From: Mucilaginibacter sp.
GTDB lineage: Bacteria; Bacteroidota; Bacteroidia; Sphingobacteriales; Sphingobacteriaceae
DNA: 64,000 nucleotides
Assembly: GCF_965277465.1 (NCBI RefSeq)
Contig: NZ_CBDICW010000001.1
Span: 451,654-515,653 of the forward strand
Direction of reading: 5' to 3'
The translations under genes were made by a program, and so were the position numbers. This document shows, one piece after another, positions 1,943-24,296 of the stretch (position 1 is its first letter; the number at the start of each line of letters is the position of its first letter). Below the pieces are notes generated by a model. That model was not told the origin of the DNA. It was given only the letters and a program-made list of their open reading frames with translations, and did no database searches.

Positions 1943-4900
1943 ATGAAGTTAACCTACAAATTTTTCCAACTGCTAGCATTTATTTTATTATGTGTATCAG
2001 TTTCAGCAGTTCATGCTCAGCAAAGCCTCCGATGGATGCAACAGCCTGCCGTATCACCGGATGCTAAATGGATTGCTTTTGAATATAGAGGAAATGTTTA
2101 TAAGGTTTCTTCACACGGTGGTAAAGCGATTCCATTGACGAAAGAAATTTCTTATAATGGTTACCCGATATGGAGTCATGATGGTTCCAAGATTTCTTTT
2201 GCTTCAGATCGAAATGGGAATTTCGATGTTTACATCATGTCCTCTTCAGGTACCGAACCAAAACGATTAACATTTAACTCCACTAAAGACATCCCTTATG
2301 AATTTTCAAATGATGATGTTTCCGTCTATTTTGGAACTACCCGTCATGATGTTTATTCATCGGTCCGCTCTCCGCAGGATAGATTTTTTCTAAAACTTTT
2401 CAAAGTTCCTGCATCAGGAGGAGCCAGTTTGATGGTCAATAGCGCCGGAATGGAATTCGCTCATTTTAACCATCAGGGAGACTTAATTATTTTCCAGGAT
2501 AACAAAGGTAGTGTTGAAGACAGCTATAGAAAACACGCGACATCTTCGGTTACCAGAGATATCTGGAGTTTCAATACTAAGACGAACGTCTATTCTAAAT
2601 TGTCGCCTTTTCCTGGTGAGGACCGGGAACCATTGTGGGGCGACGGTGATGATTTTTACTATTTAAGCGAGCGAAACGGCAACCAAAATCTTTTTAAATC
2701 TTCAACTGCGGATACAGGCAAAATTAAACAACTCACGTTTTTTGAAAAAAATCCGGTTCGTAATCTTTCCAGGTCAGCAAACGGCAGTTTTGTCTTTACT
2801 TATAACGGCGATTTGTATACCTTTTCAGAGGGACGCATTCCGCATAAAATTATTGTCAAGTTTAGTGAGGCCGCCAAAGACAGCATTATTTCAATCCCGG
2901 TAAAAGGCTCATCCGGTGATTTCGATGTTTCTAAGGATGGAAAACAAATCGCCTTCGTAATGCGCGGAGACGTATATGTAACCTCTACAGATAGTAGCAG
3001 TATTACCCGGAGAATCACCAATACCCCTTATGTCGAAAGTATGGTGAATTTCAGCCCTGATGGTAAAAAGTTACTTTATTCCGTTGAACATGCAGGCTCC
3101 TGGGATATTAATCAGGTAACCATTGCAGACCCAGCTGAAAAATACTTTTACACTGCAAAAGCCCTAAATACAACCAGTATTATCGCCGGGCCGCAAGATG
3201 AATTTCAAGGGGTTTACTCACCCGACGGAACAAAAATCGCTTACCTGGAGAATAGGGAAATTCTGAAGAGTTACGATGTAACAACCAAAGCAATACATAC
3301 GCTGCTTCCCTATGGCATCAATTTTTCCATGAGAGATGGCGACCAATCATTCACCTGGTCACCAGACAGCAAATCTATTTTAGTGCAACATGGACATCAA
3401 AATATTATCCTGGTCAGTGATGATGGGTCTGGTAGGCGAATAAACGTAACAAAAAGCGCATTTGAAGATAAACTGCCGCATTGGGGACCTTCAGGCAGTA
3501 CCATGTATACACTTTCTGCAAAAAACGGACTAACCAACTTCACCCGCGATCAGAGTCAGTTTGATATATTAGAAACCTTTTTTGATAAACGGGCGTGGGA
3601 TGATGACCGGCTCGATAAAGCGGAAGATAAGTCTTTAAGTAAGATCGAAAAAATATCGACTTTATTTTCAGACACCACCTATCATACGAAGCAGCTTACA
3701 TCCTCTCCGGCGAAAATTAACGACTTTGCAGTATCCAGGGACGGCAAACTGATTTATCTGCTCGCCAGCTATGAAAACAATTTCGACCTCTATACACTGG
3801 ATATAAAGTCCAAAGAAATTCATCTTTTTTCAAAACTTAATGCACAAAATCCGAAGATGAAACTAACCAATAATGGAAATACCATAGTATTAATTGGTGA
3901 CGACAGCCAGTTTAAAACGATTGACGCTATTTCGGGGAAAGAAGTCGCTGTGACGATAAATATGAAATCGGAAATTAATATTACCCAGGAGCGTAATGGA
4001 GTTTATGACCATATATATCTATTGATAAAGAAGCGATTTATGGACCCGAAGTTAAACGGTGTTGACTTTGAGTATTATTACACCAATTATAGGCAGTTTC
4101 TTCCATACGTCAATAATAGTTACGATTTTAAAATCCTTGTATCCGAGTTGCTCGGCGAATTGAATACTTCACACCTGGTTCCTCAATTATCCGTCTCTAT
4201 TCCCCATGCGCAATACACGGCCTCTTTGGGTTTACTATATGACCTGACGCGAACAGACGACGGCCTTTTGGTAAAGGAAGTGATCGCCGGAGGTCCATTT
4301 GATAATGAAAGCACCAAAATGCGCACGGGCATGATTATCGATCAAATTGACGGTCGAAAAATAACTATTGACGACGACTGGACTAAATATCTAAATAACA
4401 AAACAGATTCTACCGTTAGGGTCAGTTTTCATGAGTTGAAGACCGGGAAACAATACAAAGAAAAAATTCGCGCAATTGAGTTGCGAGACGAGACCTATAA
4501 CTTAATGCAAGCACGCTGGGTGAAACAAATGGAACACTTAACGGATAGTCTTTCCGGCGGTAAAATTGGGTATGTTTACATTAGCCAGATGGATGATGAT
4601 AATTTCCGCTCCTTTTATGATAAAGTGTTAGGGGGCTATGCCGATAAAAAAGCTTTGATCGTTGATACCAGGTTTAATAACGGCGGCGATTTATTGGACT
4701 TACTGACATCCTTTTTGAGTGGTAAAATTTATTTGACTGAAAGAAGGCAGGGACAAGTGACTGAAGGCGGTGAGCCAGACACGAAATGGACCAAACCCAG
4801 TTGCATCATAATGAATGAGTCCAACTATTCCGATGCTTTCAGGGTGCCTTTTATTTACAAATATTTAGGATTAGGTAAAGTTATCGGTATGCCCGTACCC

Positions 4901-5128: not shown

Positions 5129-6838
5129 ATGGAAATAATGCAGCATAAATTAATGGTTCCTCTTTCGCTGCTTTTACTCTTTTTTGTCTATGCGGATCTA
5201 TCAGCACAGGATCAAAAGCCAATTCAAAAAAGCTTAAAAATAAAAGACTATTCACCGCTGATCAGGCAGTTGGATAGCCTTATAAAGAAAAGAATGGCTC
5301 AATACAACATTAAAGGTGTTTCCATATCCCTGGTTGATGACAAATCGGTAATTTTGCAAAAAGGTTTTGGTTTTACCGATAAAACTCAACAATCTACAGT
5401 AAATGAAAAAACCTTATTCAGCATACAATCTATTTCAAAGACTTATTTAACTACTGCATTCCTGATGGAGGCATCTAAAGGGAATTATAAGCTTGACGAT
5501 CCGCTTACTAGATACTATCCGTCATTTTCTATAAAGTCGAGGTTTGGGACCAATGAAGCCCAAAAAATAACGCTTCGGCAATTATTAAGCCACCGGGCCG
5601 GATTTTGTCAGGAAGCGCCTGTTGGAAGCAATTATGATACTGTACACTGCACCTATAAAGAACATATCAAAAGTATAAGTGATGGTTGGCTGAGGCTTCC
5701 GGTGGGGAAATTTTACAGTTACTCAAATGAAGGACTAGATTTAATTGGATTTGTGCTATCAAAAAAGGCAGGGATTTCTATCGGCGATTACCTGAAGCAA
5801 AATTTATTAACCCCGCTTGGGATGAATAATAGCACCTATAACCAGGATGAGGCCTATGACTATGGTAATATAGCCAAAGGTTATTACAGGAACAATGAAT
5901 TAAAAAAGACGTACATAGCCGATGTGGCAGCCGGCGGACTTTACTCCAATGCCGCAGATATGGCTAAATTTCTTCGATACCAATTTAATGATTGTAAGAT
6001 TAACGGGAAGCTAACCATATCACCTGCATTACTCACTCAAATGCATACGGTGCAGTTTAAACTTGGTGAACAAAAGGCGGGATATGGCTTAGGTATTATG
6101 ATAAAACCTTATCATGGGGCCACTTTATTATATCATCCGGGAGGTGGATACGGATACAGTGCAGAGCAAGCATGGATTCCGGGAGCTAAATTAGGCGTTG
6201 TAATTTTAACAAACAGTGCTGACGGGTACGCATTTAATCAGGAAATCTTCAATGAGGCATTGGAAGGGATGCTAAGCGTCAAATTCGGATCGCTAAAAGC
6301 TGACAAACAACACGTTCACAAACCTGTTATTCAATTAAGCGATAGGTACCTAAAGAAATTAACAGGAACTTATAAAACGGGAAGAAGCCTGGCAGAAATT
6401 AGGTATTCAGCTAAAAAACTATTATTAATTTCCGGTTCCGACACATCTTTTTTAACTGCAAACAGCAACATAAAATTTTCAGATGCTAAGGGCAATGAAC
6501 TCATCTTTCATTTCAACAAAAATGGCACGCCTGCCTATTACATAAATGTGAATCAAAACGATGCTGATTTTTACATCTTTAATGACGCGGCAAACGATAA
6601 ACCCGGGGCCAATAAGGCATCCTGGAGGGCCCTGACAGGCACTTATAAAGGATATAATGACAGGCAGGAAGAAATTATCAAGCTATTTATGAAGAACGGT
6701 TACCTGTATTGTTCAGCGGGCGGCCCAACAAGGGTGAGCGAATATAAGCCGGGTTTACTTTTTACAGCAGACGGAGAGTCAATCTTTAAAAGGAACAGCA
6801 TCCTGTATCTTGGAAACCGCAGCTATTATAAAAAATAA
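5129..6838 (+). CDS. serine hydrolase, class C beta-lactamase / PBP-like family
   Basis: 569 aa with a signal peptide. It has the S-x-x-K motif (SISKTY) and a Y-x-N motif (YSYSNEG). Confidence 0.85.
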   Translation: MEIMQHKLMVPLSLLLLFFVYADLSAQDQKPIQKSLKIKDYSPLIRQLDSLIKKRMAQYNIKGVSISLVDDKSVILQKGFGFTDKTQQSTVNEKTLFSIQSISKTYLTTAFLMEASKGNYKLDDPLTRYYPSFSIKSRFGTNEAQKITLRQLLSHRAGFCQEAPVGSNYDTVHCTYKEHIKSISDGWLRLPVGKFYSYSNEGLDLIGFVLSKKAGISIGDYLKQNLLTPLGMNNSTYNQDEAYDYGNIAKGYYRNNELKKTYIADVAAGGLYSNAADMAKFLRYQFNDCKINGKLTISPALLTQMHTVQFKLGEQKAGYGLGIMIKPYHGATLLYHPGGGYGYSAEQAWIPGAKLGVVILTNSADGYAFNQEIFNEALEGMLSVKFGSLKADKQHVHKPVIQLSDRYLKKLTGTYKTGRSLAEIRYSAKKLLLISGSDTSFLTANSNIKFSDAKGNELIFHFNKNGTPAYYINVNQNDADFYIFNDAANDKPGANKASWRALTGTYKGYNDRQEEIIKLFMKNGYLYCSAGGPTRVSEYKPGLLFTADGESIFKRNSILYLGNRSYYKK

Positions 6839-18056: not shown

Positions 18057-18374
18057 AAGGTAGTTTACTTGGCGCACTGGCTTGTCCATTGTTGCCGAGA
18101 AGAAGGTAGTTACCATGAAGTCTGCTTAATTGACTTGAAACTTTCCTGCATGGCTGTTATGCGCTTAAATTAGCCCACTTAAGTTATATAGAAGTCTTAG
18201 GCGATTATTCTCTTCAGCTTTTGCTGACCGTTGCAGGGACTTATCAGGAGTTTTCAGACACTTAAAGCGCGGCAAACCCACACTTGACCATTGACTGCTC
18301 AATAGACCAACATTAAAGGGCACCCTGTAGGTTCTTTTGGACTAAATGAGGTAACGTGTGCTGATAAAATACAG

Positions 18375-18618: not shown

Positions 18619-19677
18619 TTAGTTTAACGTATTACCATGTTTGGCAAATTCAGTGCATAAATCAAAGGCGGTTTGACTGCGTTGCAACCCCGTCCCGTAC
18701 ATGATGCTTTTAAATTTGCTTTCATCATCCTTGAAGTTTCGGACATTCTGAAAATATCCCGTAACCGCATTGTAAGCACCAAACAAAGTTCCTTTTGTGG
18801 TCGCTTCCTGCTGTGTTGGGCTGGTTAGGGCATATTCCATAACACTACTTACCATATTATTATAAGTAGTGCTTAATTCGTCCTGCTTCCCGTTTTGCAG
18901 ATTTTGCAATACTTCCTTATTCGGTGCCATTGCAATTTGTATCAAATGCTTAACGGCATTATCTGTAATACGGATTTTCGACCAATGGTTAAACACTTCT
19001 TCCAGTTCGTCGGCTAACTGGTTGGTAATCCCTAATAATTGATGTGCTTGTTTTAGCCTTTCGTTTGCGCTGGCGGTATGCCGTATTTTAATGCCGTTGC
19101 TATGGTTACGCATGGCAGCGTTTAACGTATTGGCGCAAACTATCCTAACAGGTGTAAAAGCTGCGGTAATACTGCCGTAACCATCGTGCGAAGTAGTTAA
19201 AAACAAATACTGCTCTATTAAATCATCTTTTCCAACCCTGATATAATCGGGCAGTTTAGCGGTAATAAAAATACGCTCCCCTTTGCCCAACGCTCCGGCG
19301 GTTTCGTATAAAATCCCGTCCTTACCCCCTACGATGCTATCGAAAAACTCAAAGGCGTTTACATTCTGTACCACTTCGTAATCTTTGCCAACTACGCCCA
19401 AAACTTGTTCAGTATCGTTGCGGATGGTGGCGTAAAAATCGGGCACTTCAATTTCGGGGATTAAAATATCCATGTCGGGGTCGCCTGTATGATTTTCAGT
19501 ATCATACGTAAATAAAGGGCGTTTTTCAACGGTGTAGTTTAACCCTGCGTGTATAATCGCTTCTGCGCTCGTGGGATAATCTGTAATGATCTGCCCTAAG
19601 TTGTGCCAGGCTTTTTCCTTTACTGAAAAAAAACTGTGCTTTGCTGTTTGCTCGTTATAATTAAGATTGTGTGCCAT
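18619..19677 (-). CDS. DUF932 domain protein (phage/plasmid-like protein, TIGR03299-type)
   Basis: 352 aa. N-terminus MAHNLNYNEQTAKHSFFSVKEKAWHNLGQII. Core LGVVGKDYEVVQNVNAFEFFD...ETAGALGKGERIFITAKLP...FLTTSHDGYGSITAAFTPVRIVCANTL matches my recollection of the DUF932 family. Confidence 0.8.
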   Translation of the reverse strand: MAHNLNYNEQTAKHSFFSVKEKAWHNLGQIITDYPTSAEAIIHAGLNYTVEKRPLFTYDTENHTGDPDMDILIPEIEVPDFYATIRNDTEQVLGVVGKDYEVVQNVNAFEFFDSIVGGKDGILYETAGALGKGERIFITAKLPDYIRVGKDDLIEQYLFLTTSHDGYGSITAAFTPVRIVCANTLNAAMRNHSNGIKIRHTASANERLKQAHQLLGITNQLADELEEVFNHWSKIRITDNAVKHLIQIAMAPNKEVLQNLQNGKQDELSTTYNNMVSSVMEYALTSPTQQEATTKGTLFGAYNAVTGYFQNVRNFKDDESKFKSIMYGTGLQRSQTAFDLCTEFAKHGNTLN

Positions 19678-19861: not shown

Positions 19862-19865
19862 TGGA

Positions 19866-19991
19866 TTAGTTGTAATTATTAATGAAATCGTTTAACTCGG
19901 AATTGAAAACTGTGGGGTTTTCATTTGCTAATTGCTGTGCATAACCATCCCAAAAAATTTGGTTGGTTAATTCGATAAATAATTCTAACAT
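19866..19991 (-). CDS. hypothetical micro-protein (41 aa)
   Basis: Below the ORF-track cutoff. Manual translation: MLELFIELTNQIFWDGYAQQLANENPTVFNSELNDFINNYN. It abuts the next ORF. Confidence 0.3.
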   Translation of the reverse strand: MLELFIELTNQIFWDGYAQQLANENPTVFNSELNDFINNYN

Positions 19992-20031
19992 TGTCTTAGC
20001 TTTTAAGAAAATAGAAGTTTTTAAAAACGCT

Positions 20032-20052
20032 CCCTGCAATTCAGATGCAGGG
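20032..20052 (-). terminator. rho-independent-type terminator after the 194-aa gene
   Basis: On the minus strand: CCCTGCA-TCTGAAT-TGCAGGG followed by AGCGTTTTTAAAAA. Confidence 0.5.
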
Positions 20053-20067
20053 GGCGTTTTCCATTAA

Positions 20068-20652
20068 TTAAGCGGGAATAATGATACCTGCTTCAATCTG
20101 CGCCAGTTTGTCTAGACAAAGGGCGTTCACATACTGCGTTACATGAAAAATGATTACCGGGTTTTTAGTGGTAAAGCTTTTGCCCTTGTCATCTGCAATG
20201 GTTAGTTCGCACCGGGAATAATTGGTTATCCCGCTTTCTTCGGCTTCATCCTTTTGGTTAACCTCAAAAGCTTCCAAACTTTGGATTGTATCCATTAATT
20301 TATCCCGTTGCACCTTACGGCGGTGCAGTTCTTCCACCAATTTTAACGTACTCTCTAAATTCAGTACAGGTTTAGCGGGTTTTACTTCCTCGGCAACTTT
20401 CTTTGGTTCTTCTGCCTTTGGCTGTTCTGCCACAAATTTGGGACTGTTCTCCGCCTGTACTATTTCTTTAGGCTGTTCGGTTGCCTGTACGGGTACAGGG
20501 GTTTCCGTTTTCTTCGGTTCGTCCTTTTTGGCTTCGCCGTTTAAAGTGGTACTTACAGGCAAATTGTTTGCCTTTGCAGTTTCGTTATTGTTACCTGTGA
20601 TATTTGCCCTGTTATTGTTAATCTCTGTTGTTTTTACTTCTGCGGTTTTCAT
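20068..20652 (-). CDS. hypothetical protein with Pro/Lys/Glu-rich low-complexity N-terminal half
   Basis: 194 aa. The N-terminal half is low-complexity (KKDEPKKTETPVPVQATEQPKE...EQPKAEEPKKVAEEVKPAKP) and the C-terminal ~90 aa look globular. Confidence 0.55.
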   Translation of the reverse strand: MKTAEVKTTEINNNRANITGNNNETAKANNLPVSTTLNGEAKKDEPKKTETPVPVQATEQPKEIVQAENSPKFVAEQPKAEEPKKVAEEVKPAKPVLNLESTLKLVEELHRRKVQRDKLMDTIQSLEAFEVNQKDEAEESGITNYSRCELTIADDKGKSFTTKNPVIIFHVTQYVNALCLDKLAQIEAGIIIPA

Positions 20653-20819
20653 AATTTCTAATTTTTAAAAGTTTTTAATAAATTCAGTAATTGCCCTAAT
20701 GAGGCGTTTTGCAATGGCGGGGCGGTTTGTCCGTTCCGCTGTTGGGCTGTGTGTGGTGGGCTTCTGCCGTTTGCTGTTTTCATGGTTGCTTTTCTTTTTA
20801 AAGTCAGTCGGCAGGGCCT

Positions 20820-20996
20820 CCTGGCTTTTTGTTAAGCAACCTCACCTGAACACAAGCCCTTTGTAAGGCAAGACTTTGCGAAAAAAAATACGCTTGCGAG
20901 GAACGAGCAAGGAAGATTTTTTTTCAGCAAACCCGCAGGGCCCCGGTCTTGACGTCAAAGGGCTTGTTCAGAAATTTGCTAACCAAAAAGCCTGGG
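20820..20996. repeat. ~177-nt imperfect palindrome (long multi-stem hairpin)
   Basis: Manual pairing gave five stems. Stem A: 20820-20839 with 20977-20996, 17/20. Stem B: 20846-20863 with 20956-20971, 16 bp with a 2-nt bulge. Stem C: 20867-20874 with 20946-20953, 7/8. Stem D: 20875-20889 with 20916-20931, 15 bp with a 1-nt bulge. Apical stem: CTTGC/GCAAG at 20893-20897 and 20907-20911. Confidence 0.8.
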
Positions 20997-21271
20997 GGAA
21001 TTTTTAAAAGGACATAGAAAACAGTATTAGAAAACAAGGAGTGGCGGTAAAAAGTTCGTGTGGTTTGGGTGAGCGCAGGCGATGCCCAAATCGCACGGTC
21101 TTTTAAAATGCAGGGAAGCGGCTGAATGAGGGACGAATGAAGTGACTGGACCTGCTGAGATACCTGGTGTCAATGCGGCTTGGCATAGTCAGTATGGTGC
21201 AGATTATTCACCAAAGCTTATAGGAGTTTATTGTTTTTTTGCCGACGATAATAATTACATTGATTTGAAAT

Positions 21272-21829
21272 TTAAAGTTTAGCCACCATTTGCCGGGCTT
21301 CCTGTACCAGTTCCTCTTTTTCTTTAACCGATGTTGTGAAGCCGAAATTTTCCCGTGCTTTGGCATATTGGTTTAGGATGTATTGGAATTTGATTTTGAG
21401 ACTTTCTTTGGTTTCCAGTTTTTCCGCGATTGTTTTAATCAGACGCTCCGTTTCCGCTGATTTTTCGATGTGTGCCTGGTGACTATTTATTAAATCTTTA
21501 TTCGCTTTCAACACCTGACCGTTAAAGCAGTCCAGTATTTTGATTTGGGATTGTACCATGCGGTCAACTTCGGTCTTGACAGGAATTAGTATTTTTTCTT
21601 CCTGCGCCCGGATGAAGCGGATGTAAGTGTCATGATTTTTAACAAGCGTATTTTTAAGTATTTCATCATTGATGTCAGAAGGGTCCTTTTTGGTACGGTG
21701 GAAATATTCTACCATCTTATTGAAGAACTGGAACTTGCTTAAGCTGAATTTTTGGGAAAGTTTACTAAGCTTTTCGTCTGTCTCCGCTGAAAAACGGAGG
21801 GTCTTGCTATAATTGTCTTTTGTGCTCAT
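21272..21829 (-). CDS. hypothetical protein; possible small oriT-binding mobilization accessory protein (BfmA/BtgA-like, unverified)
   Basis: 185 aa. The N-terminus TLRFSAETDEKLSKLSQKF looks ribbon-helix-helix-like and the rest is predicted coiled-coil. The family assignment is from memory only. Confidence 0.4.
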   Translation of the reverse strand: MSTKDNYSKTLRFSAETDEKLSKLSQKFSLSKFQFFNKMVEYFHRTKKDPSDINDEILKNTLVKNHDTYIRFIRAQEEKILIPVKTEVDRMVQSQIKILDCFNGQVLKANKDLINSHQAHIEKSAETERLIKTIAEKLETKESLKIKFQYILNQYAKARENFGFTTSVKEKEELVQEARQMVAKL

Positions 21830-22146
21830 TTTGTTTGTACTTATAAGGTGACTTATGGTTATTTCGGCCTTGCCGATAGTCCTGGGGCCTCAACTTATAC
21901 CAGGAGTATAAGTTAACCCCCCGTAGCGATAGCGTAGGGCAAGCAAAGTAGGGCTCTGCCCAACTTCCGCTTGCTCCATTTTTTTTCAAAAATGGACGCG
22001 GTTAAAACTCCAAACGATGCTTCGCACCGAAGCCGCTTGCCGGCTGCAATACCGCTTCGCGGGTTGCACCGGGGCGGCGCTTGTCCCTGTGGGCTAAATT
22101 CGCTGTCGCGGTGAATAAGAAATGGCAGCTACTTCACTTTTAACAA

Positions 22147-22683
22147 TTACAAATCATCCGATTTATACCCAATTCTTTTGCGCGGTATCGGTTCATTTTT
22201 CTTTTCCAATAGTTCATCCAAATAGCGGAATACGATCTCCATGTTTTTATCCTGGTTATCCAACTTTGATTTTATTTTTTCCACCTCTAATCGTAAATCA
22301 GTATTATCAAACAGCATTTGCCGCAGTTTGGTGAAAATGCGAATGATCTGTATGTTGACCTTAATCGCCCGTTCGCTGTTTAAAACGCTGGATAACATAG
22401 CAACTCCCTGTTCGGTAAAACAAAAAGGAACATACCTTAAACCTTGTTGGTCTGATTTGGAGGTCACAAATTGTGACCTCCAAATTTGAAATTCCTCTTT
22501 ATCCATTTCAAACATAAAATCCTCCGGGAACCTTACGATGTTACGTTTTACAGACTGTTTCAAAACCTTTGTTTCTACTTGGTATAGCTTAGCCAGATCA
22601 CGGTCTAACATAACTTTATGATCCCTTATGTAATAGATTTGGTTCATTACTATTTCATCGGGTATTAGTGCGTTCTCTTCCAT
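22147..22683 (-). CDS. ORF6N (KilA-N-like) domain DNA-binding protein
   Basis: IYYIRDHKVMLDRDLAKLYQVETKVLKQSVKRNIVRFPEDFMFEM...WRSQFVTS...FCFTEQGVAMLSSVLNSERAIKVNIQIIRIF is the characteristic ORF6N pattern. Confidence 0.85.
   Translation of the reverse strand: MEENALIPDEIVMNQIYYIRDHKVMLDRDLAKLYQVETKVLKQSVKRNIVRFPEDFMFEMDKEEFQIWRSQFVTSKSDQQGLRYVPFCFTEQGVAMLSSVLNSERAIKVNIQIIRIFTKLRQMLFDNTDLRLEVEKIKSKLDNQDKNMEIVFRYLDELLEKKNEPIPRKRIGYKSDDL
22455..22485. repeat. 31-bp perfect palindrome P1, inside the ORF6N coding sequence
   Basis: ATTTGGAGGTCACAA-A-TTGTGACCTCCAAAT: 15-bp arms around a central A. It encodes WRSQFVTSK. Confidence 0.9.
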
Positions 22684-22754: not shown

Positions 22755-23984
22755 TTATTCATTAGCAAATTTTTTCCTAAGCAATGCCATATCCTTACTG
22801 ACTTTCAAATCCAAAACTTTTGCATAATGCTGTGTGGTTTTAATATTGGTGTGACCTAACATCTTGCTCACACTTTCGATAGGTACGCCATTAGATAAAG
22901 TTACCGTTGTAGCGAATGTGTGCCGGGCCATGTGAAATGTGAGCGTTTTAGTAATACCGCATATATCAGCTATTTCCTTTAAGTAGCTGTTCATCCGTTG
23001 ATTACTCAAAACAGGCAAAACAAGGTTCTTATTTACGCATTGCGGGTGATCGGCGTATTTGTTTACAATGTCGGCGGCTATGGCTAATAACGGTATTCTT
23101 GAATTGGTATCTGTTTTTTGCCTTGTTGTAAATATCCATTGTTCACCGTCAACACCTTTAGCTATTTGGTGGCGTTGTAATTTCTGCACATCTGCATAAC
23201 ATAAGCCGGTATAACAGCAGAATACAAATATATCCCGCACCTGTATCAGCCTTTCAATAGTGATACCCTTAATCACTATGGCCTCCAGTTCATTCTGCAT
23301 TAAAAACTCTTTTTCTTTCGCTTTGGCCTTTGATCTGTAATTGATAAATGGATTATCACTTAACCATTTGTTAGCTAAACAATTGTTAACGATCTTTTTT
23401 AGGTGCTTTACATATTTGGCGGCAGATACCCCGCTGCATTTGCATACCGTTTTTAGGTAAAATTCATAATTGACAATAAAGGCATGGTTCAAACTTTTAA
23501 TATCCATATCAGCTATGCCATATTGATGCTGCACAAACAACGACAAGTGTTTATATGAACTGCGATAACTTTTAAGGGTGTTGGCTACAAAGCCATTGCC
23601 AATTAATGCTTTTACCTGGTCGTTATGCTCATTAAATAACGCTACTATATAGTAGGGTTTTTCTGCACGGCCAATAAATTGATTACGTAACCTGTCGGCG
23701 GTAATACTTTCACCTGCTCCAATTAGTTGCTGGTGCGCATTCATTACTTTGGCTTGCAACGTGTCTAAGTAACTGTTTAAAGCCCTTACTTCCGATTTAG
23801 TGCCAATGCCCCGCCCAGCGTGGTTGTTCCACCCTGATGGCTCACAATCCCGTCCGGCAGACACTTCCGAACGTTTGCCATTAACGGTGATACGCATATA
23901 GACAGGCATGTTACCTGATACGTAAGCTTTTTGTTTCTTTAAATAAAAAAGCAGATTGAAATTAGTTTTCATGATTACAAGCAT
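22755..23984 (-). CDS. tyrosine-type site-specific integrase (Bacteroidota mobile-element type)
   Basis: The C-terminal catalytic region contains HMARHTFATTV and LGHTNIKTTQHYAKV. The N-terminal part is Arm/SAM-like (FYLKKQKAY...PVYMRITVNGKR). The track start at 23999 is a TTG inside a -7 box, so I moved the start to the first ATG (MLVIMKT...); the ATG at 23972 is also possible. Confidence 0.9.
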   Translation of the reverse strand: MLVIMKTNFNLLFYLKKQKAYVSGNMPVYMRITVNGKRSEVSAGRDCEPSGWNNHAGRGIGTKSEVRALNSYLDTLQAKVMNAHQQLIGAGESITADRLRNQFIGRAEKPYYIVALFNEHNDQVKALIGNGFVANTLKSYRSSYKHLSLFVQHQYGIADMDIKSLNHAFIVNYEFYLKTVCKCSGVSAAKYVKHLKKIVNNCLANKWLSDNPFINYRSKAKAKEKEFLMQNELEAIVIKGITIERLIQVRDIFVFCCYTGLCYADVQKLQRHQIAKGVDGEQWIFTTRQKTDTNSRIPLLAIAADIVNKYADHPQCVNKNLVLPVLSNQRMNSYLKEIADICGITKTLTFHMARHTFATTVTLSNGVPIESVSKMLGHTNIKTTQHYAKVLDLKVSKDMALLRKKFANE

Positions 23985-23996
23985 TAAAAAGTTAAA

Positions 23997-24004
23997 CAAA
24001 TGTA
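23997..24004 (-). promoter_or_regulatory. Bacteroidota -7 promoter box (TACATTTG) for the integrase
   Basis: Exact match to TAnnTTTG on the minus strand, immediately upstream of the first ATG. Confidence 0.45.
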
Positions 24005-24197: not shown

Positions 24198-24224
24198 TTT
24201 ATCGTATTTTGATATTGATTTTAG

Positions 24225-24296
24225 TGGTCCCGACGAGAATCGAACTCATATCTAGAGTTTAGGAAACTCCTATTCTATCCGTTGAACTACGGGACC
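24225..24296 (-). tRNA. tRNA-Arg (anticodon CCT)
   Basis: Manual cloverleaf fold. Acceptor stem GGTCCCG/CGGGACC; D stem GTTC/GAAT; anticodon stem GGAGT/ACTCT with loop TTCCTAA; T arm ATGAG-TTCGATT-CTCGT; discriminator A. CCA is not encoded. Confidence 0.9.

Follow-up and report, generated by a model that had tools for sequence, protein, structure and literature searches.

A conserved 177-nt hairpin of Bacteroidota mobile elements as a probable single-strand DNA promoter upstream of a DUF932 gene block

The stretch of DNA analysed here (the window, 64,000 nt) contains an imperfect hairpin of 177 nt that is real, strongly conserved and selected for its structure. Judged from the sequence comparisons set out below, the class of hairpins to which it belongs is best read as a new and widespread set of Bacteroidota single-strand DNA promoters. 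We put at about 60% the probability that the window hairpin is such a promoter, that is, a functional analogue of F plasmid Frpo/ssi adapted to the Bacteroidota housekeeping sigma factor.

The hairpin and its surroundings

The hairpin sits in an ORF-poor gap of 619 nt (20653-21271), with a 185-aa gene on one side and, on the other, a 194-aa gene that heads the DUF932 block. This agrees with the earlier note on this DNA, which had placed it between the 185-aa gene and the block and upstream of the latter. On re-inspection the sequence has each of the five stems and the 14-nt bulge, at the coordinates given there. The features of the hairpin and of the region around it are as follows.

18619..19677, - strand: DUF932 gene (PF06067, E = 1e-70), end of the block
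20068..20652, - strand: 194-aa gene, family C0, the first gene that the hairpin would serve
20658..20783, - strand: upstream ORF, with M-x(3-8)-[RK]-[SAGDE]-P-P as its sole conserved feature
20801..20819, - strand: leader that immediately follows the main hairpin on the sense strand, conserved as GGAGGC-CCT-GCCGACTGAC and containing a small GGC/GCC hairpin
20820..20996, + strand: main imperfect hairpin, stems A-D and apical stem-loop, proposed to fold on this strand
20820-20839 with 20976-20995: stem A, paired at 17/20 positions
20846-20863 with 20956-20971: stem B
20868-20875 with 20946-20953: stem C
20875..20931, + strand: stem D (A8/T8 helix) and apical GC stem-loop, AT-rich, upstream of the -33 element
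20932..20945, + strand: 14-nt bulge, a small side hairpin CCC-GCA-GGG immediately upstream of the -33 element
21057..21104, no strand assigned: second conserved hairpin, which lies between the main hairpin and element 1 and is flanked by runs of A and T
21110..21158, no strand assigned: element 1, in which GCAGG/CCTGC closes two or three direct repeats that read CAGC(C/A)GNTTC on the sense strand
21272..21829, - strand: gene of a 185-aa mobilization protein, a relaxosome accessory of the BfmA/BtgA family (NF041200, 47 bits; cutoff 24)

The apical stem of the hairpin reads CTTGC-N9-GCAAG. As single-stranded DNA, a segment of 217 nt folds with -49.2 kcal/mol for the + strand and -47.3 kcal/mol for the - strand, against -28 ± 3.5 kcal/mol for dinucleotide shuffles (z = -6.0 and -6.3, respectively), and 0 of 200 shuffles fold as well as the hairpin. 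The complementarity is thus beyond chance on both strands, as the earlier note had claimed. In the comparison of strands, the + strand fold is better by 2.7 kcal/mol (p = 1.6e-5). As this gap stays when G-T pairs are forbidden and the G-T wobble counts of the two strands (50 versus 63) do not differ significantly, the wobble test is uninformative, and assignment of the folded strand from wobble pairs or fold energy was dropped as non-diagnostic.

A scan of the window gap against Rfam 15 returned nothing at the gathering score and only chance-level matches at E up to 10, and 20 related loci had no Rfam match. Stem D and the apical stem-loop together bear a likeness to a bidirectional terminator. 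In a simple terminator scan (GC-rich stem of at least 5 bp, loop of 3-8 nt, T-run no more than 2 nt from the stem) the apical stem is not called, having a 5-bp stem, a 9-nt loop and a 4-nt spacer before T8; in some relatives the T-run directly abuts it. The same scan does find a match on the + strand at 21079-21094, within the second hairpin, whose stem shows compensatory changes across loci and which is likely an insulator or terminator for upstream transcription. Element 1 is conserved across loci as well.

The window's island is a small tRNA-Arg island. Its left end, at ~18240, was placed by eye only, from similarity to the ends in locus L003, and no att repeats were found with 10-nt seeds. 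The 185-aa protein that the earlier note had called RHH-like has its family match with the BfmA/BtgA mobilization-protein N-terminal model, NF041200. A Dyadobacter plasmid homologue carries the same mobilization annotation; there is no homology to the 185-aa ORF that follows RteC in Pedobacter. This BfmA-like gene, 275 nt from the hairpin, is the only mob-type gene of the island. A second structured gap, at 21830-22146, has no similarity to the Dyadobacter plasmid mob region or to the related loci. The C0 protein has 339 homologues and no Pfam or NCBIfam match; its AlphaFold model has a disordered N-terminal half and is confident only for a small conserved C-terminal domain, and Foldseek of the model against the PDB gave no match with E < 1. 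In most loci the DUF932 gene comes after C0.

Conservation, covariation and distribution

The hairpin is kept in 38 genome loci and more than 117 metagenome loci. Identity drops to ~50% in the adjacent protein but is 80-88% in the intergenic DNA of the same loci. The earlier note had named conservation with covariation as the sign of a functional structure, and both are found. Across 33 genomes, 90.4% of 1754 cells are paired, compared with 38-61% in controls with slid partners, and cells changed on both sides number 178 against 20-52 in the slid controls. Stem B has changes on both sides at 10 of its 11 pairs, and the apical stem at all four of the pairs scored. The CAAG/CTTG pairs of stem C (columns 78-81/196-199) are invariant while the adjoining stem B covaries freely, and the A-T pairs of stem D are invariant too. 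In the 14-nt bulge the CCC and GGG are paired in 31-33 of the 33 sequences, and in the wider family this side hairpin forms the best-conserved core.

There is one copy of the hairpin per locus, in fixed orientation relative to the downstream gene. Its orientation with respect to the gene that it precedes is the same in 114/114 cases (C0, 35/35; DUF6943, 62/62; DUF6266, 17/17). The idea in the earlier note that a long imperfect palindrome of this kind might be a MITE, or another dispersed palindromic repeat, is refuted for the sequences examined, where one copy occurs in the 64-kb window and one in each 12-20 kb locus. A MITE has next to no chance of being the explanation: besides the fixed position and orientation with respect to the downstream gene, no target-site duplication is present at the hairpin ends, and the element is asymmetric, scoring 100-185 bits forward against 14-26 bits in reverse.

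The hosts are CTnDOT-type conjugative elements of Sphingobacteriia and the tRNA-Arg island of the window. In the CTnDOT-type elements the hairpin stands after the tra operon and upstream of DUF932, RadC and J-domain genes. Large ORFs adjoining the block in other loci are cargo, mostly of defence type (Mrr, GmrSD, OLD/AAA_21, Piwi, RES, methylase). The gap has no DNA match among PLSDB plasmids. More than 120 metagenome relatives were fetched with a core pattern that included the bulge and excluded the promoter boxes (non-redundant n = 104). Their hairpins fold with a median z of -4.4, and a co-oriented gene is found on the downstream side in 76 of 90, compared with a rightward gene on the opposite side in 18 of 91. 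Relatives are also found upstream of unrelated genes. The distant ones lie in Flavobacteriaceae islands, in which no transfer genes were seen within 10 kb, a point against the promoter reading.

These surroundings bear on whether the hairpin could be an oriT, or an oriT mimic by which a relaxase-less island hitch-hikes on a conjugative element. The island does have a BfmA/BtgA-like accessory gene while lacking a relaxase, and the conserved repeats of element 1 lie within the same gap. We nevertheless consider this reading highly improbable. In the Pedobacter conjugative element no relaxase, mob gene or oriT was found within 10 kb of the hairpin; the 10 kb on either side of the hairpin and of TraG hold only RteC, tra genes, cargo and chromosomal genes. 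An oriT normally adjoins its relaxase gene, and its nick site lies next to a short inverted repeat. An 85-bp multi-stem hairpin with promoter boxes is a different anatomy, the position of relatives upstream of unrelated genes also counts against an oriT, and no nick consensus was recognised in the gap by inspection.

A promoter-like motif in the 3' arm

The earlier note had seen no convincing -33/-7 promoter in the duplex. One is in fact present as a candidate: on the + strand, the template for the downstream genes, the 3' arm reads CTTG-N19-GAAATTTG and resembles the -33/-7 promoter of Bacteroidota. Its parts, with the start predicted from them, are these.

20948..20951, + strand: -33-like element CTTG, inside stem C, in 34/35 loci
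20952..20970, + strand: spacer, the 3' arm of stem B, free in sequence and kept in length and pairing
20971..20978, + strand: -7-like box GAAATTTG, in 30/35 loci
20828..20834, - strand: predicted start of transcription, in the template arm and facing non-template position ~20983, with an RNA that would read ACAAAAAGCCAGGAGG...

The spacer is 19 nt long in 22 loci, 20 in six, 21 in six and 22 in one. From A-11 to T-8 the -7-like box lies in a conserved internal loop facing CCTCAC. The -7 consensus is TAHHTTTG (PMC6847099, PMC7366714); in the window subfamily the box begins with G rather than the near-invariant T-12, and the -33 element of the window is CTTG, not TTTG. As background, the relaxed motif occurs 0.23 times per kb on each strand. 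Of the 104 distant metagenome relatives, 69 have an exact TAnnTTTG at the equivalent place, within a motif TTG-N17-23-TAnnTTTG (mostly N20-21). Elsewhere on the same strand of these relatives TAnnTTTG does not occur, and it occurs once on the sense strand. Where present, the box is always in the 3' arm, with its centre unpaired in ~60% of folds. No canonical promoter was found on the sense strand, where TAnnTTTG is seen in one of 35 loci between 260 nt upstream of the hairpin and 60 nt after it. In all cases the boxes belong to the strand complementary to the genes and lie in its 3' arm. The suggestion in the earlier note of a single-strand promoter is partly supported and has more behind it than any other reading: it gains a conserved motif that would be aimed at the 194-aa and DUF932 genes, with the reservation that in the window subfamily the first base of the -7 box is G and not T.

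The position of this motif has to be set against two other readings. One is a structured element of a sense-strand mRNA that starts farther upstream, with a role between the tra operon and the DUF932 block in termination, insulation, RNA processing or 5'-UTR regulation; it is unlikely. It would suit the apical GC stem with its A8 and T8 flanks, which looks like a bidirectional terminator, the other terminator-like hairpin just upstream, and some one-sided G/A changes opposite T, which are compatible with G-U pairs on the sense strand. A terminator, however, has no need of ~60 extra bp of covarying outer stems. Such an RNA also leaves unexplained both the exact TAnnTTTG with -33 spacing on the antisense arm alone (69/104, versus 1/104 on the sense strand) and the kept non-complementarity opposite the -7 box, and it has no Rfam family to match.

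The second reading is an ordinary double-strand promoter on the + strand, making a rightward divergent or antisense RNA, or an invertible promoter caught in its OFF state. The boxes are valid in duplex DNA too, and in the Mucilaginibacter subfamily a hairpin with a T-run ~115 nt rightward could end a small RNA. The rightward sequence is, however, poorly conserved, the T-run is missing in the Pedobacter subfamily, and a rightward gene is present in only 18/91 relatives, against 76/90 whose other side has a co-oriented gene; the reading would also leave the selected pairing of the arms unexplained. Bacteroides invertons are similar to the window motif in that a sigma-ABfr promoter with flanking inverted repeats is aimed off the gene in one state. 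They differ from the window segment, where self-complementarity extends throughout and the inner stems covary. Both orientations would be expected of an inverton, whereas the orientation here is constant (114/114), and most loci have no invertase nearby, a serine recombinase being present in only a few of them. In either form this reading is quite improbable. In the duplex form the same boxes point away from the genes, where they may have a function of their own.

We therefore return to the single-strand promoter. We infer that the + strand is the single-stranded one, that RNA polymerase binds it, and the position of the start site, the last of these from where G-5 of the -7 box lies (PMC6847099) and from the pairing of stem A. 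The most plausible occasion for the element to be single-stranded is its arrival in a conjugation recipient; if the oriT is upstream of the BfmA-like gene, the + strand would be the one transferred by the usual definition of the leading side. This strand would fold into an imperfect duplex of ~85 bp, in which the 3' arm would serve as the non-template strand of the promoter and would present, from 5' to 3', an AT-rich helix, the side hairpin, the -33 CTTG in an invariant helix, a spacer helix of 19-21 bp and the -7 box. The internal loop would keep this box (GAAATTTG in the window, TAnnTTTG in relatives) partly open. RNA polymerase would start ~5 nt past it with the 5' arm as template, and transcription would leave the base of the hairpin and run through the upstream ORF and the 194-aa gene to DUF932. 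Once the complementary strand is made, the hairpin would be lost and the block would fall silent, because the sense strand has no -7 box, the opposite arm being deliberately non-complementary there.

The same RNA could also prime synthesis of the complementary strand, as shown for Frpo, and it may be asked whether priming is all that it does. A single-strand origin, at which RNA polymerase makes a short primer on the ssDNA hairpin and no mRNA, would have an anatomy identical to that of the promoter. Frpo transcripts are reported to prime complementary-strand synthesis, and ICEs can replicate by rolling circle. Three observations speak against priming alone: the promoter would aim at a conserved co-oriented gene ~100-250 nt away (114/114), a translatable upstream ORF directly follows the hairpin, and the block has no other promoter box. 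As the sole function it is improbable. Priming and promoter functions are not mutually exclusive.

Downstream of the predicted start, the small hairpin of the leader is conserved in alignment A2, with the variants GGCA/TGCC and GGGC/GCCC. The motif of the upstream ORF, RSPP at 20754-20765 in the window, was found in most of the 35 loci, as judged from 31 sequences read by eye and not from a computed count, and there is no conservation past PP. RAPP-like motifs are ribosome-arrest motifs (PMC12992588). A fuller reading, to which we give somewhat less than an even chance on the strength of the sequence patterns, is that of a phylum-wide Bacteroidota hairpin cassette, of which the window hairpin would be the first instance. 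It would be a sigma-ABfr promoter active only as a single strand, with its -7 box pre-melted and placed as a module before "first-minutes" genes (DUF932, RadC, J-domain, DUF6943, DUF6266). In the window subfamily it would be joined to an upstream ORF with an R-[SAG]-P-P ribosome-arrest motif, by which translation of the early block would be timed or gated. The range of the proposed cassette covers conjugative and other mobile islands and samples from soil, freshwater, marine and gut sources.

Relation to known single-strand promoters

The closest parallel is with class 1, Frpo1/Frpo2 of F and ssi1-3 of ColIb-P9/pESBL, which are likewise long imperfect hairpins on the template strand. Frpo1 is a proven single-strand promoter, and early ygeA expression in recipients requires it. 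In the F plasmid's leading region a copy of the Frpo hairpin is upstream of a 95-aa gene and a DUF932 gene, so that Frpo1-ygeA-ygeB and the window share the layout of hairpin, small gene and DUF932. The window hairpin would also share with class 1 the two boxes rebuilt in the duplex and reading into "arrival" genes, and in both silencing is expected once the DNA is double-stranded. It differs in length (~177 nt versus ~315 nt for F Frpo), in its boxes (Bacteroidota -33/-7, TTG / TAnnTTTG, versus -35/-10) and in its hosts (Bacteroidota integrative elements versus enterobacterial plasmids). A simple scan of F Frpo for -35/-10 boxes found none, and inspection was ambiguous. Since blastn of the hairpin against the F leading region gave only matches of 10-16 nt with E > 1, and hence no sequence homology, the hairpin is not a member of the Frpo/ssi sequence family.

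The single-strand promoters of classes 2 and 3 in pESBL/F are ssp elements upstream of klcA, ardA and M.EcoGIX (Wen et al. 2025, PMC12672017). Their hairpin sequences are unrelated and have the same role upstream of each leading-region operon (PMC12672017). They belong to another phylum and differ in sigma factor and sequence, and their starts were mapped by 5' RACE, whereas the window start is a prediction only. The window hairpin may also be compared with single-strand origins. The ssoA-type origins of rolling-circle plasmids and the sso of ICEBs1 are strand- and orientation-specific hairpins of 150-200 nt that are read by host RNA polymerase on ssDNA. These yield a short primer, are not positioned to read into genes, belong to Firmicutes and have RSB/CS-6 motifs of their own.

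Single-strand promoters allow incoming plasmids to express anti-defence and establishment genes before they are double-stranded and, to our knowledge, have so far been proven only in enterobacterial plasmids. If the present reading is true, the principle would extend to integrative elements and to another phylum and sigma factor. Among the Bacteroidota are groups of the gut and of the environment in which resistance genes are moved by conjugative transposons. The hairpin would give a search handle for the unmapped "leading regions" and early genes of their elements, with DUF932, the 194-aa family, DUF6943 and DUF6266 as candidates for anti-defence or establishment functions, and Bacteroidota genetics would gain a compact natural part for expression that is specific to single strands.

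The hairpin and its island

The hairpin (20820–20996) lies within the 619-nt gap 20653–21271 of a small island of ~6 kb beside a tRNA-Arg gene. The island genes are without exception on the − strand, and the features concerned are as follows.

18619–19677, − strand: DUF932 protein
Between C0 and DUF932 in the island gene order, − strand: 66-aa ORF
20068–20652, − strand: C0, 194-aa protein
20658–20783, − strand: short upstream ORF, with an RSPP motif at 20754–20765
21057–21104: terminator-like hairpin with a covarying stem, upstream of the main hairpin
21110–21158: element 1, a repeat element ~115 nt from the main hairpin
21272–21829, − strand: 185-aa protein matching the BfmA/BtgA mobilization-protein model
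22147–22683, − strand: ORF6N protein
22755–23999, − strand: tyrosine integrase
24224–24296: tRNA-Arg, adjoining the island

In the minus-strand sense the gap precedes C0, the 66-aa ORF and DUF932, and the hairpin is thus upstream of the DUF932 block as the earlier note had it. The 185-aa gene, there called RHH-like, is indeed beside the gap, and the model match now identifies it as a BfmA/BtgA-family mobilization protein. No relaxase or transfer genes were found in the island. The DUF5712 partner gene that follows the counterpart of the 185-aa protein on a Dyadobacter plasmid is missing, so that the island has the accessory protein without a relaxase.

All the features described in the earlier note are present: five colinear stems, internal loops that are nearly symmetric, and a GC-rich bulge of 14 nt. 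Folded as single-stranded DNA, a 217-nt segment gives −49.2 kcal/mol (+ strand) and −47.3 kcal/mol (− strand), compared with about −28 ± 3.5 kcal/mol for 200 dinucleotide shuffles, none of which fold as well (z = −6.0 and −6.3, respectively); complementarity far beyond chance, as claimed, is therefore borne out for each strand. The duplex totals ~85 bp, which would roughly match a polymerase footprint. No matching family was found in Rfam 15.

A scan for the C0 family, taking one genome per species, gave 38 loci. C0 homologues come from Mucilaginibacter, other Sphingobacteriaceae and a metagenome-assembled Hanamia genome. The intergenic DNA around the hairpin is 70–95% identical across the 38 loci. 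In Pedobacter and Pelobium loci it is 80–88% identical whereas the C0 protein is only about 50% identical, and the non-coding DNA is thus more constrained than the adjoining gene. In the alignment of 33 hairpin copies, invariant blocks alternate with compensatorily changing helices, and RNAalifold finds both-sided changes at 14 of 32 pairs. A separate 54-pair structure was scored on the same alignment against partners slid by 1–3 columns and against shuffles. Standard pairs are formed in 90.4% of cells (38–61% in slid controls), both-sided changes occur in 178 cells (20–52 slid, about 60 in shuffles) and the covariation score is 0.265 (0.04–0.09 slid). Stem B varies freely, with both-sided changes in 10 of its 11 pairs, while little or no variation is seen in the CAAG/CTTG core of stem C, in the A8/T8 helix or in the small CCC/GGG side hairpin.

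With the alignment profile, a single copy is detected in the 64-kb window and likewise in every locus, ~150–340 nt upstream of C0 and in constant orientation, with no target-site duplication at the hairpin. A MITE, which the earlier note had wished to see checked, is thereby refuted. Full-length copies score ~97–185 bits forward and 14–26 bits at the same sites reversed; the hairpin is intrinsically asymmetric.

In Pedobacter, and in about half of the loci, the module lies at the end of a CTnDOT-type transfer operon, in the order RteC, DUF4134, DUF4133, TraG, TraJ, further conserved tra-operon ORFs without a Pfam match, TraM, a 326-aa protein, Hc1, hairpin, C0, a 92-aa ORF and DUF932. Since the same module ends these operons, the window island is a minimal relative that has retained the integrase, the mobilization accessory gene and the hairpin module. 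In the remaining loci, defence-type cargo (Mrr, GmrSD, OLD/AAA_21, Piwi, RES, methylase) is inserted on one side or the other of the block. Both flanks are cargo insertion hot spots (loci L005, L009–L011, L014, L015, L021, L027 and L034), where the cargo, defence-type in part, includes Mrr, GmrSD, OLD/AAA_21, DUF4435, a Piwi-domain protein, RES and methylase. RadC-like and J-domain genes, named from sequence, are part of the block in some loci.

Elsewhere in the island, the left end (~18195–18340) carries a conserved terminal sequence, …CCCTTTAATGTTGG…CAGTCAATGG…GCCGCGCTTTAAGTG…CTGATAAGT, which occurs twice in the Hanamia contig L003 (~2850–3050 and ~5750–5950) and puts the boundary near 18240; no att direct repeat of the island was found. 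The gap 21830–22146, upstream of the BfmA/BtgA-like gene, forms a large multibranch fold (z = −5.7). This fold has a T8/A-run apical hairpin of its own, and TAAATTCG occurs close to where its 3′ arm begins at the base. The gap may be an oriT or a second single-strand element, and nothing similar was found in the compared loci or the Dyadobacter plasmid.

Promoter-like boxes on the + strand

Promoters of the Bacteroidota housekeeping sigma factor have TTTG near −33 and TAnnTTTG near −7, the latter more precisely TAHHTTTG (T−12, A−11, T−8, T−7, T−6, G−5) (PMC7366714, PMC2483708, PMC6847099). The earlier note had found no convincing −33/−7 promoter inside the duplex, but boxes resembling one are present on the 3′ arm of the + strand, with CTTG at 20948–20951, a 19-nt spacer and GAAATTTG at 20971–20978. 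In the folded + strand the 3′ arm would serve as non-template, and the 5′ arm with all DNA 5′ of it as template. Because the boxes sit on the non-template arm, transcription would leave the hairpin base toward lower coordinates and give sense RNA of C0 and DUF932.

Part for part, the constraint agrees with this reading. The −33 element falls where stem C is invariant, and stem B forms the spacer, free in sequence and kept in pairing and length (19 nt in 22 of 35 loci, 20 in 6, 21 in 6 and 22 in 1). The −7 box is GAAATTTG in 30/35 loci, its A−11 to T−8 occupying a conserved internal loop whose other side, CCTCAC, is unable to pair with the box; stem A would be the initially transcribed region. 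A relaxed motif, TTG-N19-21-nAnnTTTG, occurs at 0.23 per kb per strand in the window, giving a chance of ~0.02 on one given 90-nt arm. The single-strand promoter idea of the earlier note thus gains promoter-like boxes, orientation and covariation; the −7 box of the window subfamily deviates from consensus in having G at −12, which may make the promoter weaker or more strictly dependent on single strands. We put at about 0.6 the probability that the hairpin is a single-strand DNA promoter working like Frpo, ssi and ssp. Our confidence is much higher that the structure is genuine, under selection and strand-asymmetric.

On the sense strand, from 260 nt upstream to 60 nt past the hairpin, TAnnTTTG occurs in 1 of 35 loci, against ~10 expected from the window background rate, and none was found on the − strand anywhere in the gap 20653–21271. 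As a terminator-like hairpin and a repeat element also precede the main hairpin, the C0–DUF932 block looks insulated from upstream transcription. An A-rich leader and the short ORF directly follow the hairpin. All that is conserved in this ORF is M-x(3-8)-[RK]-[SAGDE]-P-P (RSPP in the window; RAPP, RGPP and RDPP in other loci), its length and its sequence beyond PP being variable. RAPP-like motifs are ribosome-arrest sequences depleted from proteomes (PMC12992588). With an arrest-like ORF in this position, there is further indirect evidence of a translated sense RNA that would start at about the hairpin.

The short ORF resembles RAPP-type arrest peptides, but its motif is unusually near the N-terminus. 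The hairpin at 21057–21104 has an A-run before and a T-run after it, giving it the look of a bidirectional terminator, and its stem varies in sequence with pairing kept. In the Pedobacter set this second hairpin has a common loop, GAGGAACGRAG, which is also the apical loop of the window's main hairpin. In element 1, CAGC(C/A)GNTTC is directly repeated two or three times (sense strand) within a compensatory GCAGG/CCTGC stem (GCGG/CCGC in variants), and locus L019 has two copies of the element; it could represent protein-binding iterons or part of an oriT. Just past the C0 stop codon, in the gap 19862–20067 (z = −6.1 for the gap), A and T runs flank a GC-rich hairpin with a perfect stem of 15 bp. 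A strong bidirectional terminator thus lies within what was taken for one block, and the block may consist of two transcription units, or transcription may pass through the hairpin.

Distant relatives in metagenomes

Metagenome contigs were scanned with the side hairpin and A-run only (GCCCTRYGGGTTT-N2-5-AAAAAATCT), neither promoter box being in the pattern. At least 120 loci were recovered from soil, freshwater, marine, digester and termite-gut samples. The alignment profile matches 117 of the 120 loci listed, mostly in the central part only, and these loci are thus more distant. The relatives have, in the same orientation, TTGACCTTGAC, followed after ~20–21 nt by a perfect box (TACCTTTG, TATCTTTG, TAACTTTG or TATATTTG). 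Among the 104 non-redundant relatives listed, exact TAnnTTTG occurs on the template strand in the 75 nt after the side hairpin in 69 (chance about 5%), elsewhere on that strand of the hairpin in none, and anywhere on the sense strand of the hairpin in one.

Among the matches listed, the relatives fold as long hairpins (median z −4.4; 85% below −3). The box is on the 3′ arm in 68 of 69 box-carrying folds, with its six central bases unpaired in ~60% of minimum-energy folds and T−12 and G−5 mostly paired. A terminator or insulator of sense RNA is plausible for the apical A8-stem-T8 part, but it leaves over both this strand- and arm-specific perfect −7 box and the outer 60 bp of covarying stems.

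The gene downstream is not that of the window (DUF6943 in 62 loci, DUF6266 in 17, others elsewhere); it is close and on the strand opposite to the boxes in every case among the matches listed, with no inverted arrangement. A priming-only, sso-like role would begin with the same recognition and could coexist with the promoter, but a fixed, close and co-oriented downstream gene points to mRNA. Were the boxes instead a duplex promoter driving antisense RNA, a gene that it could serve is present in only 18 of 91 relatives listed; this reading is without a conserved target, does not account for selection for arm pairing and is argued against. An inverton is excluded by the same orientation in 114/114 loci, which comprise 35 upstream of C0 and, among the matches listed, the 62 and 17 upstream of DUF6943 and DUF6266.

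The relatives before DUF6943 (about 140 aa) or DUF6266 (213 aa) are among loci L044–L163 and L165–L167. Where their surroundings were examined, they lie in Flavobacteriaceae islands that also carry VapE-like primase, SNase, DUF5675, resolvase and defence genes. DUF6943 and DUF6266, both uncharacterised families, may be early or establishment genes.

Strand of entry and the F plasmid

The weakest link of the promoter model is which strand enters, and the BfmA/BtgA-like gene is the sole clue in the island; counting wobble pairs in the hairpin gave no strand discrimination. In Bacteroides mobilizable plasmids the oriT lies upstream of the BfmA/BtgA-type gene. If this holds here, and with the leading side of oriT being that away from the relaxase and accessory genes (bioRxiv 10.64898/2026.01.13.699239), the + strand would enter 5′ first, as the promoter model requires. 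That the hairpin is itself an oriT is unlikely, as it is far from any relaxase and unlike an oriT in anatomy; neither the relaxase nor the oriT of the Pedobacter element was found within 10 kb of it.

In the F plasmid's leading region (NC_002483, locus L043) a DUF932 gene (64438–65259) follows a 95-aa gene, and the gap before the latter contains a second Frpo hairpin, 89% identical to the one upstream of ssb. This region, 64032–65259, adjoins oriT. Frpo1 lies upstream of ygeA and ygeB, and its deletion abolishes an early YgeA reporter in recipients (Couturier et al., PMC9849209). From sizes and order, we assign ygeA to the 95-aa gene and ygeB to the DUF932 gene; if this is right, the layout of single-strand promoter, small gene and DUF932 is experimentally established. 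The window and F DUF932 proteins are distant homologues (E = 4e-6), whereas the window hairpin has no sequence in common with F Frpo.

In full-text literature searches, single-strand promoters were described for enterobacterial plasmids, with a handful of candidates from other sources; no Bacteroidota example was found. Although it would work in a like manner, the window hairpin is outside the Frpo, ssi and ssp sequence families and uses another promoter grammar, in integrative elements of another phylum. Since the F leading region encodes a DUF932 protein downstream of its Frpo copy, DUF932 is an 'arrival' gene common to proteobacterial plasmids and Bacteroidota conjugative elements.
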